Under the pieces are notes generated by a model, which worked only from the letters and a program-made list of their open reading frames with translations, did not search any database and had not been told where the DNA came from. Below, one piece after another: positions 50,060-63,529 of a stretch of DNA of 64,000 nucleotides. The DNA comes from Mobula hypostoma. Taxonomy: Eukaryota. The translations under genes were made by a program, and so were the position numbers. Position 1 is the first letter of the stretch. Each line of letters opens with the position of its first letter. Location: positions 15,190,001 through 15,254,000 of the forward strand of contig NC_086108.1 in assembly GCF_963921235.1 (NCBI RefSeq). Reading direction: 5' to 3'.

Positions 50060-51000
50060 TAGAAACATTGAAAACTTACAGCATAATATAGGCCCTTCGG
50101 CCCTCAAAGTTATGCCGAACATGTCCCTACCTTAGAAATTACTAGGCTTACCTATGGCCCTCTATTTTTCTAAGCTTCACGTACCTATCCAAAAGTCTCT
50201 TAAAAGACCTTATCGTATCCGCCTCCACCACTGTTGCTGGCAGCCCATTCCACGCACTCACAACTCTCTGCATTAAAAAACTTACCTGACATCTCTGTAT
50301 CTACTCCCCAGCACCTTAAACCGGTGTCCTCTTGTGGCAACCATTTCAGCCCTGGGAAAAAGCCTCTGACTATCCACACAATCAATGTCTCTCAGCATCT
50401 TATACACTTCTATAAGGTCACCTCTCATCCTCCTCCACTCCAAGGAGAAAAGGCCGAGTTCACTCAACCTGTTTTCATAAGGCATACTCTCCAATCCAGG
50501 TAACATCCTTGTAAATCTCCTCTGCACCCTTTCTATGGCTTCCACATCCTTCCTGTAGGGAGGCAACCAGAAATGAGCACAGTACTCCAAGTGGGGTCTG
50601 ACCAGGGTCCACATAGCTGCAACATTACCTCTCGGCTCCTAAATTCAATTCCACGATTGATGAAGGCCAATACACCGTACGCCTTCTTAACCACAGAGTC
50701 AACCTGCACAGCTGCTTTGAGCATCCTATGGACTCGGACCCCAAGATCCCTCTGATCCTCCACACTGCCAAGAGTCTTACCATCAATACTATATTCTGCC
50801 ATCACATTTGACCTCCCAAAGAGAACCACTTCACACTAATCTGGGTTGAACTCCATCTGCCACTTCTCAACCCAGTTTTGCATCCAATCAATGTCCTGCT
50901 GTAACCTCTGACAGCTCTCCACACTATCCACAACACCTCCAACCTTTGTGTCATCAGCAAACTTACTAACCCATCCCTCCACTTCCTCATCCAGGTCACT
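50060..51000 (-). mobile_element. CR1 LINE 3' fragment
   Basis: SKFADDTKVGG, LVRPHLEYC, ERVQRRFTRMLPGL. Confidence 0.9.
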
Positions 51001-53781: not shown

Positions 53782-54872
53782 TCATCATCATCATCATCAT
53801 CAGGTGCCATGCCCAGTTTGAGCTTTGACTACTATGGCCCACACACTCCTGTTTCGGGTCAAGTCGATCAATTCATTGGTATTCATTTCCAGTTCTCTGG
53901 CTGCTGTCTCCATCATTATTTGTCTTTGCCTTCTTCCCTTCAATCTTTCCCATAATTACCGTGCACTCTAACTTCTCTTTCCTAATTTCATGTCCAATGA
54001 AGTTACGTTGCCTTTTCATGATCTCATACATTATTTCTGTTTTTGTGCTTGCTGTGTTCATGATATCCTCATTAGATATTTGTTTCGTCCATGATATTCT
54101 TTGCATCCTCCTCAAAAACCACATCTCTGATGCTTCAATTTGTTGCCTCATGATACTAGATATTGTCCAATATTCTGAGCTATATAACATAACATTTCAG
54201 TGCTCTGTGGCGGGTTGTCATGCCTAGTTTAGTGTTGGTCAGTATACTCTACATTCTCGTAAAGGTGTCTTTTGCCATCCCCATTCTTCTTTTGATGTCC
54301 ATGTCTCACCTGCCATCTGATGTCACCCAGCTTCCTAAGTAGCAAAAGTTCTGTTCTTGTTTTATGTCTTCCCCGTTTTATGCTCAGCCTGCAGGTAGGA
54401 TTCCCCTTCTTTTTGGATATCACCATACATTCTGTCTTTTTGCAATTGATAGAAAACTTAAGACAAAAGTTTACGATTGAAGTAAAGAATAGATTTCAAA
54501 GTCTAGAAATAGAATTTGTTGAAGATGATAGCAATCGTGTAGAAAAGAAGTTTAACTATCTGAAGGATGCCTTGGTAGAATCAGCAAAGTCAGTGATTCC
54601 TAAAAAAGAAAAAAACACGAAGAATAAATGGATGACAGATGAAATCAAAAATCTAATGGAAGAAAGGAGACGGAAGCATGCAAATCCTATAGAATATAAG
54701 TCCTTAGATTAAAAAAGTTAAAAGCTTATGTTAAAAAGCCAAAGAAGAATGGTTAAACCAGGAATGTGAGCAATTAGAAAGAATCCCTATTACTGATCCA
54801 AAAAGGTTACATCAACAAATCAAGAATATCACTGGTAAAAAGCTCCTCTGTTCTTCAGGTGGATGTTTGAAA
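53782..54872 (-). mobile_element. RTE-clade LINE insertion with a 5' inversion
   Basis: (ATC)n tail at 53782; minus-strand RTE C-terminus (LYSSEYWT..IEASEMWFLRRMQRISW); plus-strand upstream ORF2 piece (EVKNRFQSL..KNKWMTDEI); 11-bp TSD GCTCTCAGGAA at 53771-53781 and 54873-54883. Confidence 0.88.
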
Positions 54873-56569
54873 GCTCTCAGGAAAGAATAATTATAATGGA
54901 GGTGGATATAGGTAGTCTGTAATGGCAGAGGTGTAATCCTAAATTGACCCTGGGGGATGGGGGTGGGGGGGGGTCAGATATAATGCCAAAGTTGCAGCAT
55001 GTGCCAGTAAACACTCAGGCATCATCTGTGAACAAGGAAGCAAAGTTAAATGTTTCAAGTTGTAGAAGAATTTTCAGCAACTGCAACAGGTTACCAGGAG
55101 ATTGGTAATTCAGTTTACCAATCTGTGGCGATGGAACAGAGCAAATGGCTTTGGAAATACCTATGTTTGTTTGAAGTTAGTTTCTACTTAACCTCTTTGG
55201 GTTGCAGATAAATGGAGAAAGTTGCTGAGCGTCGTCCTCTCTCTGCATCTGATTTCTCTGAACAGTCCATGAACACTTCTTCAGTATGCCTCTTTTTGCT
55301 CTGTTTACTTGTTTTTGTAAGTTATAGTCACTGTATCGCTGCCACAAAGTAACACATTTCACGGTGAATGTCAGTGAACACATCTAGAATACTTAGATAT
55401 TTTTGTAGAGTTGGTTTTGTGAGGGGTATTCTTTTGATGAGGCAGATAAATGCCTTGAAACGGCCAGGTCTGTTGGTGTACTATAAAAATAAATCTCATG
55501 TAGAGTGGACCAAGTTACAAAAAATAAAGCAATTCAATCCATATCCAAGGATCTCGGTGACTTTTTCAGGACAAGTATTTAATATTAATTTCATGAGTTG
55601 CTGGATTTTCTTACGTTGTGTATTTTTTGAACTTTGTAAGTTAATCTCTTTTGTTTTATAGATTGAGACTACGTAATGGCTAAGATCTACAGGAACCCCG
55701 TGCTGGAGCATTGTTGCATGTTTTGCGATGCATCAACACTGTACCGGGGCACATTTGTGTGGTAATTGGTGAGTTTCTTGTGAGATTGGTGGGTTTGTCA
55801 AAGGAAATTAGGGTTCTTTCACTACTGGGCAGGGAGGGGTTGGGGTGGGTTGGGTGGAGAAGCCCCTCAATTATTGTAGTAGCATACCACCCCAGGGGGC
55901 CACATGAATGGCAACAGTGCTATTGGTTTTAAGAAATGTAGTAGAACATTACTTAACACATTGTCTATGAATGTAAGAATGAAAAGGCATTGCATAGTTT
56001 ATTCCTGTAAATTAAGTTATATATGTATGTATAAATTTCTTATGGCTCATTGATCCAGTGCTACAATGGTAGAATCCTGAAAGGGTTGGACAGCTTTTGG
56101 TTTCTCTCCTGAGACGATTGCCTTCACCAGTAATCTTGTGATGCACATTTCTCCTGTCATTGCTTGGCATTTTTGCCATAAGCAATTCAGCTGGTAGAGC
56201 TTCTTCCTTGCTACTCCAGTGTTCTCGATCAAATCCTGACATCTGGTCCTGACTGTGTGGGATTTTACACATTATCTCTCTGAAAGTGTGGGTTTCTGCT
56301 GGATGCTTCCTTTTTGTGGTTTGGTTGGTTGTCCTGAGTGGGTGGCATCCTAGCAGAGTTAATAAGAACACAGGGAGAATAAAATGGGTTTAGTGTGATG
56401 GTCAGGGTGGATCAGTGCACTGAAGGACCTGCCAATTGCAGAGAAGATTTTTAGTTAATCTCAAACAAGGCCCTTAATTCAGCGTTCCCCAACCACCGGG
56501 CCGTGAGGAAACGATATGAGTCAACTGCACCTTTCCTCATTCTCTGATACGCACTGTTGAACTTGAACA

Positions 56570-57145
56570 TAGGGTTGCCAACTGTCCCGTATTTGGCGGG
56601 ACATCCGGTATATTGGGCTAAATTGGTTTGTCCCATACGGGATTGTCCTTGTCCCATATTTCCCCCATTAAGGTACAGCATTCCATTAATTTATATGGGA
56701 AAAATTTTTGCGCGTTCCCAGACTCAAAAGATAACCTACCAAATCATACCAAATAACACATAAAACTTAAAATAACTCTAACGTATAGTAAAAGCAGGAA
56801 TGATATGGTAAGTACACAACCTATATAAAGTAGAAATAATATATGTACAGTGTAGTTGGGAAGATTAAGCCAAAACCGATTTGTGGAAAAAAAAATCGGC
56901 GCGTATGTGCATGCGCACGTCAAGCATGCGCACACAGGTGCCCGTGCAAGGCTTCATGGTCATGGTAGTCTTTCTCGGGGTAAATACAAGTGTCCCGTCA
57001 ACACACACAAAAAATGCTGGTGAACACTGCAGGCCAGGCAGCATCGATAGGAAGAGGTACAGTTGACGTTTCGGGCCGGGACCCTTCGTCAGGATTTGAC
57101 TGCTACTTTTGTCCTTATTTGGAAGTGAGAAAGTTGGCAACCCTA
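56570..57145. mobile_element. Nested non-autonomous TIR element (TAGGGTTGCCAACT termini, hAT-like)
   Basis: Perfect 14-bp terminal inverted repeats TAGGGTTGCCAACT / AGTTGGCAACCCTA. Confidence 0.75.
57060..57096 (-). ncRNA. Penelope-type minimal type I hammerhead motif (core intact, stem I damaged)
   Basis: Minus strand reads ...atcCUGACGAaGGGucccggCCCGAAACGUCaacug: intact CUGANGA, stem II, GAAA and GUC. Confidence 0.6.
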
Positions 57146-57726
57146 ACTGAAAAAGACATGTTGAGGTGAGTTTAACCCAACTTGAACATGCCCCCCCCCC
57201 CCCGGGGTCAGCCGGTCCACAAGAATATTGTCAATATTAAACCGGTCCGCAGTGCAAAAAAGGTTGGGGACCTCTGCCTTAATTCACTCAACTGACCTAC
57301 TGTATACCACTCCACATACATCACATCCAATACTCTTTTAGTCTTTTCTCTATCAACCAAGTTGTCTTGGTCACCTGCTGCACTGATCTGCACTGCTTGG
57401 GGTATGCATGGTCACCCAGTGGGGCGCTCGCTTTTTCAGTGAGCACTGATAACAGAACTGCTCTTGTCACTGGACTAAATTTGGTAACAGCAACCATCTA
57501 GTAGCAATTAGAATCATAGATTTATACAGCGTTGAGACCGGTCCATCACCCCAACAGGTTGCCTACTCAACTCGTCCTACTTGTCTTTATTTGGCCCATA
57601 TTCCCTCTAAACCTGTCTTATCTATGTATCTGAAAGGCTTTTGAACATTGTAAACGTTCACATATCCACCACTTCCTCTGGCATCACACATGTGTGAAAA
57701 GGTTGACTGTCAGATTGCCTTTAAAT

Positions 57727-57806
57727 CAGGGTTTCCAACCTTTTTTATGCCATGGACCCTTACCATTAACCGAGGGGTCTGTAGACCCCAGGTGGGGAAA
57801 CGCCTG
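57727..57806. mobile_element. 80-bp hAT-type MITE
   Basis: CAGGGTTTCCAACC...GGTGGGGAAACGCCTG termini, 8-bp TSD CTTTAAAT/CTTTAAAA; a partial related copy lies at ~39885-39933. Confidence 0.7.
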
Positions 57807-57926
57807 CTTTAAAATCTTAATCTTTTCACCTTAAATCTAAGCCCAGGGGGGAAAAACTGTGACCATTTATTGTATCTTTGCCCCTCATGATTATATAAAT
57901 CTTGATAAAGTCAGCCCTTAGTCTCC

Positions 57927-58507
57927 CGGGTTATTAGTGAACTCACAGTCCCCTGGGAAGACGACATCGATGAAGCCCATGAGCGCAAATTAACCAAGTA
58001 TTCAGTATTAAGATCAGGATGCAGAGACAGAGGGTGGAAGGTCTCATGCTATCCATTCGAAGTAGGCTGCCGTGAGTTTATTGCATTCACTCTCCAGAAG
58101 TGGCTGCGTGACCTTGGCTACACTAGAAGAGAGATCAAGTCAACTAGCAGGGCTGTAGCTGAGGCAGCAGAGAAAGGATCAGCATGGGTGTGGACCAAGT
58201 ATGTCCAGAGGGGCAGATAGTCAGACAGTGTATACATCTTTTGCAAACCCTTCAGTAGTTGCATAGACACCCGAAGAGCAGACTATCTGTTGGATGGAAG
58301 TGACCAACAACTCTGATAGAGGCAGATGCCAAGTTTTTAAGCTCATCAGTGGGAGGTGGTACTTTAGCACTGCTGGCCCACCATCTTGAGGGAGTCTTGA
58401 TCATAAGTGGGCCGAAACTCCTGAAGACAGGTAGCAAATCAACTGATGATCCCACTGGTGATCCCACTGAGAACAGTTAACATCTTAGTCCACGTGTATT
58501 CTGTAAC
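57927..58507 (+). mobile_element. 5'-truncated HERO-like (restriction-like endonuclease) non-LTR retrotransposon
   Basis: Open frame 57927-58220 (absent from the ORF track, no start codon): RVISELTVPWEDDIDEAHERKLTKY...C..RGW...PFEVGCRE...AEAAEKGSAWVW...*. Flanked by a 54-bp direct repeat at 57873-57926 and 58508-58561 (1 mismatch). Confidence 0.85.
58390..58456 (+). ncRNA. Putative rearranged (non-circularly permuted) hammerhead ribozyme in the HERO 3' UTR
   Basis: GUC 58394-96, GAAA 58414-17, CUGAUGA 58443-49. Stem III GGAGU/ACUCC, stem I UUGAU/AUCAA, stem II AGUGGG/CCCACU. Confidence 0.6.
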
Positions 58508-58989
58508 TATCTTTGCCCCTCATGATTATATAAATCTTGATAAAGTCAGCTCTTAGTCTCCTACACTTCGGGGAAACTAGTCACGGCCTATCCAGTCTCT
58601 ACTTATTACTCAAGTTCTCCAGTCGTGGCAACATCTTTGAAACAAAAAAAACTGCACCACTTCCAACTTATTGATGTCCTTCCTATAGCTGGGTGAACAA
58701 TACAGTAGTTGTGGTCTCACCAGTGACTTGGCGAGGTGATTGTTGCAGGTGTGATAATAACATGACAAAATGGAATGGTGTTTAATACAGGCACATGTTG
58801 ACAGAGGAAGATTGACAGACATGTTGACAGACAGAAATGTAGTTGGAAGAAATTGATTCTATTTCATATATGGAAGAGACTGGAGACTACCCTGCAAGAA
58901 AGCTGGAGACCACAAAATTGCAATGTCCAGGATTAGTGGTAAATATGGGTGAGATTCTTTAGATGGGATGTGTGTTTGGGGAGGAATAA

Positions 58990-60420
58990 AGTTCTAAGTA
59001 AATTTGTTATCAAAGTACATATATTTCACCATATCTAACCTTGAGATTCATTTTCTTGTGAACCCACAAGCAAACAATGTACAGAAGACAATGCACTGTG
59101 CAAATACAAAAGGAAAAATAATAATAACAATAAATAAATATGCATTGAATATCAAGAACACAAGATGAAGTGTCCTTGAAAGTGAGTCCGTAGCTTGTGG
59201 GAACAGTTCATTGATAGGGTGAGTGAAGTTATCCCCTCAGGTTCATAATTGTTCCCGAACCTGGTGGTGTGGGTGCTGAGGCTCCGTTCATATGGAAGCA
59301 GTGAGTAGAGAGCATGGCCTGGATGGTGGGGATCATGGGCGATGGATGCTACTGTCCAGTGTAGATGTGCTCATTGGTGGGGAGGGCTGTACCCATGATG
59401 AACTGGGCCATATCCACTACTCTTTGTAGGATTTTCCATTCAAGGGTATTGGTGTTTCCATACCAGGCCATAATGCAACCAGTCAATATACTCTCCACCA
59501 CATATCTACAGGAGTTTGTCAAAGTTTTAGATGCTATGCCAAATCTTCACAAACTTATAAGGAAGTAGATGTGCTGCCGCACTTTCTTTGTAATTGCATT
59601 TATGTGCTAGACCCAGGACAGATCCTCTGAAGTGATAATTTAAAGTGGCTGATCCGCTCCACCTCTGTTCCCCAGGTGAGGACTGGCTCATAGACTCTGG
59701 TTTCCTCTCACGATGTCAATCGTCTCCTTCGTCTTATTATGGCACCACTCAGCCTCCTTTCTTTATGTTGATTCGTCACCACCTTTGATTCAGCTAACAA
59801 CAGTGGTGTTGTCAGCAAATTTACATATGGCATTGGGAGCTGTGCTTAGCCTCACACTCATAAGTATAAAGTGAGTAGAGTAGGGGGCTAACCACACAGG
59901 CTTGTGGTGCACCTATGCTGATGGAGATTGTGAAGGAGATGTTTTTGCCAATCTGAACTGACTGGGGTCTGTCTGCAAGTGAAGAAGTCGAGGATCCAAT
60001 TGCACAAGGAGGTTTTGAGGCCAAGGTCTTGAAGCTTATCAATTAGTGTTGAGGGGATGATTTTATTGAATGCCGAGCTGTAGTTGATGAAGAGTATGCT
60101 GATGTATGTATCTTCGCTGTCCAGATGTTCTGTGGTTGAGTGAAGAAACAATGAACTGCCGTCTGCTTTGGACATGTTGTGATGTAAACAAATTAGAGCA
60201 GATCCAAATCACTTCTCAGGCAGGGGTTGATATGTTTCATTACCAGTCTCTCAAAGTAATTCATTGCAGTGAATGTACTATAAGTGCTACTGGACGATAG
60301 TCATTGAGTCAGGTTACCACATTCTTCTTAGGCACCAGTATAATTGACGTCTGATTGAAGAGATGGGTACCTCAAATTGCCGAAAGAGAGGTTAAAGATC
60401 TCAGTGAGCACTCTAGCCAT
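58990..60420 (-). mobile_element. Rex1/Babar-type LINE, decayed
   Basis: YISILFINYSSAFNKIIP, GAPQACVVSPLLYSLYT. Confidence 0.85.
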
Positions 60421-60469
60421 TTGAAAGGTAAGGTTTAGAGGGAAAGATGGAAGATCCATCCACTGTCTC

Positions 60470-60995
60470 TAGGCCTTTCACTATTTGATAGGTTTCAATG
60501 AGATCCCTCCCCTTTCTTCTAAACACCAGTGAGTACAGGCCCAGAGCATTCCTGGTATGTTAACCATTTCATTCCCAAAATCATTCTTGTTAAACCTCCT
60601 CTGGACCCTCTCCAATGCCAGCATATCCTTTCTTAGATAAGGGGTCCAAAAATGCTCACTGTATCCCAAGTGCGGTCTGACCAATTTCTTATAAAGACTT
60701 AGCATTGCATCATTGCTTTTATGTTCTAGTCCTCCTGAAATGAATGCTAACATTGCATTTGCCTTCCTTACTACTGACTCAACCTGTAAGCTAACCTTCA
60801 GGGAATCTTACACAAGGACTCCCAAGGCCTTCTGTATCTCTGATTTCTGCATTTTTTTCCCTGTTTAGAAAATAGTCTACACCTTTATTCCTGCTATCAT
60901 AGTTCATGTCCTTACATTTCCCTACATTGTATTCCATTCTCCTAATCTATCCAAATCCTTCTGCAGACTTCCTGCTTCCTCAACACTACTTGCCC
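60470..60995 (-). mobile_element. CR1 LINE fragment
   Basis: MLAFISGGLEHK..LYKKLVRPHL..LERVQRRF. Confidence 0.8.
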
Positions 60996-61480
60996 TTCTG
61001 TCATGCACCATTGTTCTGAACCATACAAGAGTGTGGACAGGACACAGCTCTGGTACATCTTCACCTTGCTGTGGACACTGTACTTGGTTGTTCCCCAAAG
61101 GTTGCTCATTGATCTGAAGACGATTCAAGTTTTGCTGAGTCCTTGGTTCCACTATTTAGCCAAATGATGCTGCCTAGGTAGGTGAAGCTAAGTTGATGCC
61201 ATATGCCTTGATGGGAGGAGGAGACTCTACATTGGTGGTCATGGTCTCAGTCTGTCTCTGGTTGACTGTTCAACCCGTCCACCACAAGTTACACAGGTGC
61301 TGAGTTTTCTCTTGCGTGTGTTGGTCTGTATGTGATAGTAAAGCAAGGTCATCCGCAAAGTCAAGGTCTTCTAAAGTGAAAAATAGAGTCCACCTAATGC
61401 CCCTCTGCTTATCTTTCACTGTTTGCCTCATAACCCATTCAATCACCAGGTTAAACGATATCGTCGACACCACACAGCCT
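60996..61480 (-). mobile_element. RTE-type LINE RT fragment
   Basis: FNLVIEWVMRQ...GIRWTLF.TLEDLDFADDLALLSHT. Confidence 0.7.
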
Positions 61481-62417
61481 AGCAGACTTTGTGCTAGCCT
61501 TGATTTGAGAGATGAGATTGGAAGTAAACAAACATAATTATATCCAAGAGCATAGCTGAGGAGAGGCTTTTGAGGGGAATGAAGTGATGGCAGACTAAAG
61601 GTGAGTTTGGAGGAATGAAGATTTTGAATACAGGTTACAGGGGTGTCATTTCAATATGATGGAGGAGTAAACTAAATTAGAGGAAAAGGCAGATACATAT
61701 TTAGGAGATAACAATATTTTGAATAGCAAAGGAAAGATGGAATTGGGAAGATAAATTTGGAAGGTAGAAGACAAAGGTAACGAGGATTTTTAAAAAAAAT
61801 TAGAAACCTGCCAATGGTAAACATGGAAACTGTAAAAATGGTAAATAAGAATGAGTTACTAGAAATAACATTAAACCTGAGATGGAAAGCAGCTTGTATG
61901 ATTTATATTCTGTCCATTATCTGTACCTACGTGCTAGTGAAACTGCTGCAAGCAAACTTTTCTTTGTATCTGTACTTGTACTCACTATGATAAACTCAAG
62001 TTGAGGCTTGGTCAGTACTTAGTTGGAGGATGAAGTGAACAAGGAGTGGGTTTCATGGAAAAGTTGAGAAGAAGAAGCAAGACTGGTGCTAGGAAAGTCT
62101 TGAGGCAGAAACATGATTCCATAACCTTGTTGAGGAAGAGGAAAGTGGCAGATGCAGCTTCTATGAGTGCTCTTGGGTTCCCCAGTCCCTTGACACAGTC
62201 TGTCCATCAGCTCTTTCCTTTTATTGTTTGGTCATTTGGAAAACTATGGGACTTGGTGACCAACAGCATGAAAATCCTGCAAATAGTGCAGAGATACTCA
62301 CTGGGTGGAATATGCCATGATATGCCTCATTTGTGCTTGCTTAAAAGGAGCCATTCTTCTTTAGTAACCACTACACTGCTTCTTCCCTGCAGGAGTGTGT
62401 GAGCTGTACTGGGAGCC

Positions 62418-63286
62418 ATGGAAAAGGAGGGCAGCATCCAGCTGGAGGTCCCAGATTTCAGCAGCTCCGTGCTGGCACAGCTCAATCAGTTGCGGATGCA
62501 GGGTCGCCTCTGTGACATCGTAGTTGACATCCAGGGGAAGTCCTTCCGTGCCCACAAGGCCGTGCTGGCTGCTAGTTCGCCCTACTTCCGTGATCACATG
62601 TCCCTGGGTGAGATGAGTGCTGTTTCCATCTCGGTTATCAAAAGCCCGGCAGTGTTTGAGCGCCTGCTGGCATTCTGCTACACAGGCAAATTATGCCTGC
62701 AGGTGGCCGACATTATAAGCTACCTAACAGCAGCTAGCTTCCTCCAGATGCAGTACATCATCGACAAGTGCACGCAGATCCTGGACGGCATCCACTTCCG
62801 CATTGACATCTCCGAGGTGGAGGCAGGGCTGAGCCAGGATGGATCAAAACGCTTGGGCCAGCCTCGTGGTGGGGGCAGTGTTCTCCCCCCAAACCCACGG
62901 CGAAGGCGGATACCCTCAAACTACGCAGGGGGTGCAACGCATGGGAGCCCATTGCCTGATGACTTGGGTGGTGAGGGTGGCAATGACGAGAGGCTGGTGC
63001 GCATTGATCGAGTGGGCCAATGGTATGTGGAGACTGGTGTCAGCAGAGATCGCAGCCCAGAAACAATCAGGCAGATCAGCAGCATGCGGATCAAGACCGA
63101 GACTCCAGATGAGTGGATTGTGTCGGAAAACCAGCCATCTGGGGAGGATGGCAGTAGTGCAGAGGAGGTGACAGCCATGGTGATTGACAGCACTGGACAC
63201 AGCACTCTGGTCCAGGATACCTTTCACACCACGGCATCGAGCGGCAAGACCTCCAGACCCTCCAGCAGCTTCAGTGAGATGGACAG
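62418..63286 (+). CDS. ZBTB37: Zinc finger and BTB domain-containing protein 37, first coding exon (BTB/POZ domain plus linker); gene continues beyond the window
   Basis: Acceptor cttccctgcAG at 62391-62392, Kozak gccATGG at 62418. Reads MEKEGSIQLEVPDFSSSVLAQLNQLRMQGRLCDIVV...AASSPYFRDHMSL...GQWYVETGV...ENQPSGEDGSSAEEVTAMVID; donor AG|GTATGG at 63286/63287 (phase 2). Adjacent to SERPINC1 as in other vertebrates. Confidence 0.93.
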
Positions 63287-63529
63287 GTATGGAAGGCAGG
63301 TCACTCCATGGCCGTTGTATACAGCTTTACTCTGCTAATATTCGGGCAGAGGGTGGGGTCCCAAAGGCAGCAAAGTATGTACTGTGGGTGGGATCGTGCA
63401 GGATGGACGTGCCTGGTGTGGTCAAAGTAGCAATGTGTAGGATGGGGCTTTGAGTTCATAATGTACACAGTTTACAACATGTATGCAATATTTGACACCA
63501 TGGAAGATGAAGGAGTGGTCCAAATAGTG

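Follow-up and report, generated by a model that had tools for sequence, protein, structure and literature searches.

The 3′ untranslated region (UTR) of HERO-like non-LTR retrotransposons almost certainly contains a conserved RNA that has six helices and the full core of a hammerhead, as judged by comparison across related sequences. This RNA is a new variant of the hammerhead, in a non-circular order, and not a member of type SGC. Its fold is genuine and spans the clade, and it goes together with an unusual replication signature in an R2-type LINE; the run-on of HERO-like copies through a fixed junction into a partial tandem is likewise new. Intact copies probably self-cleave, with the cut predicted after C17, which by analogy is C58396 in the copy described here. 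We lean slightly towards a cycle in which the 3′ UTR RNA cuts in two successive units, self-ligates into a circle and is reverse transcribed for more than one unit length. The full picture stands at about an even chance in our estimation: the HERO-like LINE clade would possess a seventh hammerhead topology, five-way, doubly pseudoknotted and built to hold the cut ends together, and would replicate via a protein-coding circular RNA of 3.9 kb that the element makes itself, with internal priming and rolling-circle copying.

The window, the whole 64,000-nucleotide (64 kb) stretch of DNA that was analysed, holds at 57927-58507 a 5′-truncated HERO-like LINE flanked by both copies of a 54-bp target-site duplication (Table 1). 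The initial annotation had placed its hammerhead in the 3′ UTR of a HERO-like retrotransposon with a restriction-like endonuclease (RLE), and this location was upheld. A search of the element's own genome found 1742 candidates; the 40 that were scored comprise the window copy and 39 copies at 94-96% identity. The longer copies have a single ORF encoding an N-terminal zinc finger (a weak match), a reverse transcriptase (RT), a CCHC finger and the endonuclease motif PD..ELTVPWE. Pfam searches of these copies returned RVT_1 (E = 9e-17); two further matches, to zf-RVT (E = 8e-5) and to zf-C2H2 (E = 0.09), fall short of their curated cut-offs. The protein matches R2 proteins in the PDB, and relatives of the element occur in lancelet, sea urchin, scallop and fish; the viral contigs searched contained none. 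The unit is about 3.85 kb long and has no fixed target. The 54-bp duplication is unusually long for the family, in which duplications of at least 12 nt were seen in only 6 of 59 copies. The clade is presumably HERO, a name carried by none of the relatives found. In the accessible portions of the published clade descriptions (PMC9004415, PMC4640811), HERO elements also have a single zinc finger-RT-CCHC-RLE ORF, no fixed target, and hosts among lancelets, sea urchins and fish, in agreement with the domain layout and relatives found here. Membership in the clade thus fits, as set by domain layout and these descriptions and not by a HERO-labelled reference.

Table 1. Positions, within the window, of the element and of the parts of its 3′ UTR RNA
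Feature	Position	Strand	Remarks
Target-site duplication (54 bp), left copy	57873-57926	+	98% identity to 58508-58561
3′ end of the ORF (restriction-like endonuclease, ELTVPWE...P.EVG) of the 5′-truncated HERO-like non-LTR retrotransposon	57927-58220	+	
ORF stop codon, TAG	58218-58220	+	
Element 3′ UTR	58221-58507	+	Family copies stop 104-112 nt past the predicted cut, without a poly(A) tail
Helix IV, 5′ strand	58343-58354	+	12 bp with 58450-58461; 7.24 bp versus 6.01 of 8 bp for swapped partners, 0/2000 swaps as good (n = 34)
Hairpin V	58355-58374	+	No gap to helix IV on one side or to G10.1 on the other; single mismatch, at 58361, in the window copy
Stem II, 5′ strand	58375-58379	+	G58375 is G10.1
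Joining helix (between the far ends of stems II and I), 5′ strand	58381-58386	+	Partner 58429-58434; weakened in the window copy
Stem III 5′ strand (58390-58395) with GUC triplet (58394-58396)	58390-58396	+	Cut predicted by analogy after C58396 (C17)
Stem I, 5′ strand	58397-58401	+	Partner 58438-58442
Stem II 3′ strand (58409-58413; C11.1 is 58413), GAAA (58414-58417), stem III 3′ strand (58417-58422)	58409-58422	+	
Joining helix 3′ strand (58429-58434), stem I 3′ strand (58438-58442), CUGAUGA core (58443-58449)	58429-58449	+	
Helix IV, 3′ strand	58450-58461	+	Begins directly after A9
Target-site duplication, right copy	58508-58561	+	Matches 57873-57926

All of the core letters named in the initial annotation were confirmed in the sequence, and the hammerhead core C3 U4 G5 A6 N7 G8 A9, G12 A13 A14 A15.1, U16.1, H17 is present in full. 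Over the 130 nt compared, nine positions separate the window copy from an intact sister copy, and none of them falls in the core. We scanned related loci for the elements U-N-stem I, GAAA-stem III and CUGANGA in this order, within 600 nt past the ORF end and with at least 4 bp each in stems I and III; the scan fixed CUGANGA, GAAA and U16.1, and left H17 and N7 unconstrained. The relatives were the best 80 of 368 related metagenome stretches, at 37-49% protein identity, from a metagenome scan that started from an 11-sequence alignment. The core order recurred in 48 of the 80 loci, and among the 58 that had 250 nt or more downstream it recurred in 42; none was found in 80 reverse complements, 80 ORF stretches or 800 shuffles, and within the window, scanned on both strands, the order occurs once. 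A relaxed scan, permitting one core change within 800 nt and requiring stem II, was positive in 52 of the 58 loci, with controls of 0/58 and 0/76. With a covariance model built on 17 sequences, 42 matches with E no higher than 0.1 were obtained in 63 sources, and every match lay on the sense strand. The positions that the scan had left free behave, in these sequences, as they do in hammerheads. Among 35 non-redundant sequences the triplet at the cut site is GUU in 12, GUC in 11, GUA in 10 and AUA in 2, never ending in G17, and every base occurs at N7 (U in 19, C in 8, A in 5 and G in 3); position 11.1 is C in 30 and U in 5. Rfam found no hammerhead in the whole window, gave three chance-level matches elsewhere in 56000-61000, none relevant near the motif, and matched none of 20 related loci, as expected because the Rfam hammerhead models cannot match this core order.

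For the helices, the 48 hits were reduced to 34 non-redundant sequences, which together with the window copy make 35, and observed partners were compared with partners swapped between families in 2000 swaps; these tests ignore relatedness, so that the swap counts are not probabilities, and the related families are not independent samples. Since MAFFT misregistered the 5′ helices, anchored counts were used instead. Stems I and III, for which the scan selects, covary well beyond partner swaps. Stem II is formed by the five bases 5′ of GAAA and a strand 18-25 nt upstream of U16.1, with 4.83 of 5 bp against 3.84 for swapped partners (0/2000). The pair 10.1-11.1 is G-C in 28 of the 35 sequences, G-U in 5 and something else in 2, and the U/C mismatch that had been noted at this step of the window copy falls away, as the actual pair is G58375-C58413. 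In 27 sequences 95% of the cells of stems I-III are paired, with 87 double changes, compared with 34-45% for slid partners; for stem II in 17 sequences of the commonest spacing, a sample that favours this stem, the figures are 97.6% and 19 double changes.

Further helices extend the RNA. The strand directly 3′ of CUGANGA pairs with a strand far upstream to form helix IV (Table 1), and the stretch from the upstream strand to G10.1 is a single hairpin (V), with no dangling base, in 26 of 34 sequences. A sixth helix links stems II and I at their far ends, with 5.80 of 6 bp against 5.05 for swapped partners (0/2000). Single-strand folding of four sequences, by a method that cannot form pseudoknots, recovered helix IV in all four and hairpin V complete in three, with z from -1.8 to -3.0. 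The covariation gives the order, from 5′ to 3′, helix IV strand, hairpin V, stem II, joining helix, stem III-RUH-stem I, stem II′-GAAA-stem III′, joining helix′, stem I′-CUGANGA, helix IV′. A9 is therefore not joined directly (0-2 nt) to the 5′ strand of stem II; instead, helices IV and V lie flush between A9 and G10.1, and are predicted to stack as one helix projecting from this step. The non-circular order and the pseudoknots of the initial annotation stand, but the dimer that it gave as the alternative to a pseudoknot is not needed, because all helices close inside one copy, and the RNA, which had been given as 58390-58456, starts at 58343 and has six helices. With stem II and the extent of the RNA read correctly, the topology is not the published type SGC but a further rewiring.

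The closest known RNAs are the type-SGC hammerheads (HRIMA-1; Eckert et al. 2023, PMC10085705). They share with the HERO RNA the order cut site-GAAA-CUGANGA (blocks S, G and C) with all core bases, the three mutually crossing stems with a short link between stems I and II, and a helix that connects stems I and II at their far ends, which was required experimentally there (PMC10085705). In type SGC, however, block C remains intact, with stem I′, CUGANGA and the stem II 5′ strand in a row, whereas in the HERO RNA helices IV and V split this block and the 5′ strand of stem II is found upstream of the cut. Such a split had been assumed to be impossible (Eckert et al. 2023, PMC10085705), and we found no report of this topology in the literature searched. 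Active hammerheads with one extra unpaired base between A9 and stem II are known (PMC4209133), and the accessible part of Perreault et al. (PMC3088659) has small core insertions only. The SGC RNAs come almost only from metatranscriptomes and none from the genomes of known organisms (PMC10085705), in contrast to the HERO RNA, which belongs to animal LINEs.

The ends of family copies show the replication signature mentioned above. Of the 30 copies that hold the 5′ UTR, 25 continue upstream, via a near-invariant junction, into their own 3′ end, and five stop inside the UTR; the query of this upstream search began 50 nt inside the 5′ UTR. The upstream pieces measure from 13 to more than 1448 nt, and in 13 of the 30 copies the piece is long enough for a whole second ribozyme. 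The junction recurs in distant families: in 13 of 38 loci CUGANGA is followed after 57-95 nt by the next 5′ UTR, and 10 loci have a match to the N-terminal part of the ORF 3′ of the motif. At the cut site itself, both sides are kept in all 60 copies checked. None of the 30 copies chosen by the downstream half begins at the cut (the nearest 5′ end lies 135 nt upstream), and none of the 30 chosen by the upstream half ends there, all extending to +104 or further, as a ligated template predicts. Deletions at the cut amount to one spanning event in 126 segments, mostly high-identity picks that are biased against gaps. No tail follows the 3′ ends of the copies, and 51 of 61 have T at base +112. We also fetched 28 tandem loci whole, 24 of which had both ends. 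Non-CpG variants common to both ends of the same insertion number 50, against 13.8 in shuffled pairs (0/5000), and 12 of the 24 insertions have at least one. The tandem structure and the shared variants together indicate a template that was copied for more than one round, or that already held two matching ends.

In the cycle that we favour, a partial-tandem copy would carry two ribozymes, and cutting at both would free a unit-length RNA. The two ends of this RNA would rebuild the ribozyme, held together by four helices (IV, II, the joining helix and III; about 29 bp) and not one, so that re-ligation would be favoured. If priming on the circle is internal, as we assume, the RT would start about 112 nt past the joint and then pass its own start, yielding the next partial tandem. 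The continuation of complete copies into a repeat of their own tail would follow from such a cycle. The same cycle was proposed for Penelope elements by Cervera and de la Pena, as set out in PMC4209133. Several observations count against it. One tandem, L245, carries at both ends a 17-nt deletion over the cut site together with changes at stem II and G12, and is either a scar of imprecise joining or a sign that tandems arise without an active ribozyme. On one contig, two head-to-tail HERO units (L067 1-3446 and L059 10-3438) are only 67-68% alike; a single circle cannot make this pair, and self-targeting, template switching or mis-assembly are possible origins. Twelve of the 24 insertions lack a shared non-CpG variant, one of them despite an overlap of 807 nt, and 9 of the 50 shared variant sites form one cluster in L254. 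Given the rarity of target-site duplications, the tandems cannot be shown to have inserted in a single event. Finally, a shared variant that breaks stem II (58404-58413, with changes at 58409 and 58413) occurs in one contig each of runs X15 and X16, which we guess to be RNA, from two other organisms, and in X16 its contig is the deepest there. Ribozyme-dead copies might be favoured among stable transcripts.

Some of these observations would suit a ribozyme that cuts without ever forming a covalent circle. It would trim read-through transcripts, freeing the 5′ end of the next unit or destroying most of the element RNA, and tandems would come from linear tandem transcripts or from RT jumps between the 5′ end of the RNA and its own 3′ end. 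RT jumps usually leave untemplated bases in R2, and the junction here is nearly invariant; both count against this route. The dead tandem L245 and the unlike neighbours L067 and L059 agree with a route of this kind, as do the 11 of the 25 upstream pieces that begin between the cut and the junction; against it, the other 14 pass the cut site, and none of the 30 copies starts at the junction or exactly at the cut (the closest lie at +4, +18 and +19). Moreover, inherited upstream pieces could only shrink unless they were regenerated. There is a precedent in the HDV-like ribozymes that release R2 and L1Tc from co-transcripts, as described in the accessible part of PMC6765202, and on balance we regard cutting without a circle as rather unlikely. 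The RNA could also be hammerhead-shaped but silent, or very slow, and serve as a platform for RT binding and priming, with the tandems a separate matter. In favour of such a platform, both cut sides are retained in 60 of 60 copies, the two-helix insertion at A9 is without tested precedent in the literature searched, and variants that break stem II occur. R2 proteins, too, bind structured UTR RNA. However, a plain binding site need not keep the catalytic bases, the RUH rule and a free N7, and here the catalytic bases are all invariant while the other two features hold at 37-49% protein identity; we consider a silent platform quite improbable.

Two further explanations concern the fold itself. 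The initial annotation had drawn stem II as 58406-58411/58451-58456, which would make the RNA an ordinary type-SGC hammerhead, or else a dimer. The window copy does allow six pairs, and the block order is S-G-C as in PMC10085705, but across the 34 sequences these strands form 4.26 of 6 bp compared with 4.14 for swapped partners, 322 of 2000 swaps being as good, and 46% of the cells are paired, no better than with slid partners. One of its pairs, an A-U, needs T58408, which stems from CpG decay in the window copy; 96 of 114 family copies have C there, so that the family majority has an A-C mismatch. Both strands, furthermore, have better, covarying partners, and we hold this fold to be very unlikely. 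The last alternative, a chance match or a box C/D or k-turn motif, is suggested by the UGAUGA within CUGAUGA and by the lack of an Rfam hammerhead, which models that cannot match the core order could not have supplied. It is scarcely credible: the core is not due to chance, because it was found in 48 of 80 loci and in none of all 960 control stretches, and position 7 is free to vary, which a C box would forbid.

Among mobile elements, the favoured cycle of cutting, circle formation and more-than-unit reverse transcription has its nearest counterpart in Penelope-like elements and retrozymes. Penelope-like elements likewise have a hammerhead in a terminal region and partial head-to-tail tandems, with a proposed circular RNA and more-than-unit reverse transcription (PMC4209133). 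Their hammerheads, however, are of type I, placed in flanking repeats, mostly minimal and dimer-dependent (PMC4209133), whereas the helices of the HERO ribozyme close within one copy. They also encode a telomerase-like RT and a GIY-YIG nuclease in place of an R2-like RT and a restriction-like endonuclease; the HERO-like element works like a Penelope-like element, but is not one. R2, which shares the RT/RLE protein type, and L1Tc are LINEs with a self-cleaving RNA as well, but in the accessible part of PMC6765202 this RNA has the HDV fold, lies at the 5′ end and frees a linear RNA, while the HERO RNA has a hammerhead core in the 3′ UTR and is predicted to be cut 111 nt before the element end. 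No hammerhead, ribozyme or partial tandem in HERO appeared in the literature searched, which included the accessible parts of PMC6765202, PMC6155905, PMC7650587 and bioRxiv 10.64898/2026.07.22.740005; subscription papers, Repbase Reports and bioRxiv supplements lay outside this search, so that an earlier notice is possible.

The HERO fold breaks the stated architectural rule that CUGANGA and stem II cannot be separated. It also moves non-circular hammerheads from anonymous metatranscriptome RNAs to animal genomes, where they are invisible to descriptor and Rfam searches. For an R2-type retrotransposon, of a class now being engineered for gene insertion, this is an unexpected life cycle, one that lacks a fixed 5′ end and probably uses a circular template. 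The long-standing circle model for partial-tandem elements can now be tested in a second lineage, unrelated to the first. RNA circularisation could make use of a ribozyme that holds on to both of its products.

Some minor observations concern individual loci. A second CUGANGA-like word lies 3′ of stem III′ at 58421-58427 of the window, and at the same place in L040, L062 and L113; one A in it is conserved at 90% or more, and the word is perhaps a tertiary contact. As the head of a normal hammerhead it was ruled out, for its stem I strand would overlap GAAA. The metagenome copy L041 breaks off after 1265, about 7 nt past the predicted cut, and in the DNA run X1 one of four listed joints, that at L009 1681-1723, starts at the cut; each is a single case. 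Three units of 1.0-1.3 kb (L234, L244 and L248) retain the 5′ UTR, the 3′ end and a partial tandem, and are possible non-autonomous, internally deleted derivatives. By eye, L093, L096, L107 and L109 have stretches resembling tRNA A and B boxes within 150 nt past the ORF, which in L107 and L109 precede the ribozyme; ARAGORN found no tRNA in six loci, and the stretches are possibly an internal promoter for the next unit. Elsewhere in the window, 50282-50835, 53873-54712, 59888-60807 and 61270-61650 are fragments resembling reverse transcriptases of what we take to be other LINE types. An exon of a BTB/POZ gene lies at 62403-63338 on the forward strand (Pfam BTB, E = 1.6e-26); the element sits 4 kb upstream of it in the same orientation and may therefore be transcribed within an intron.
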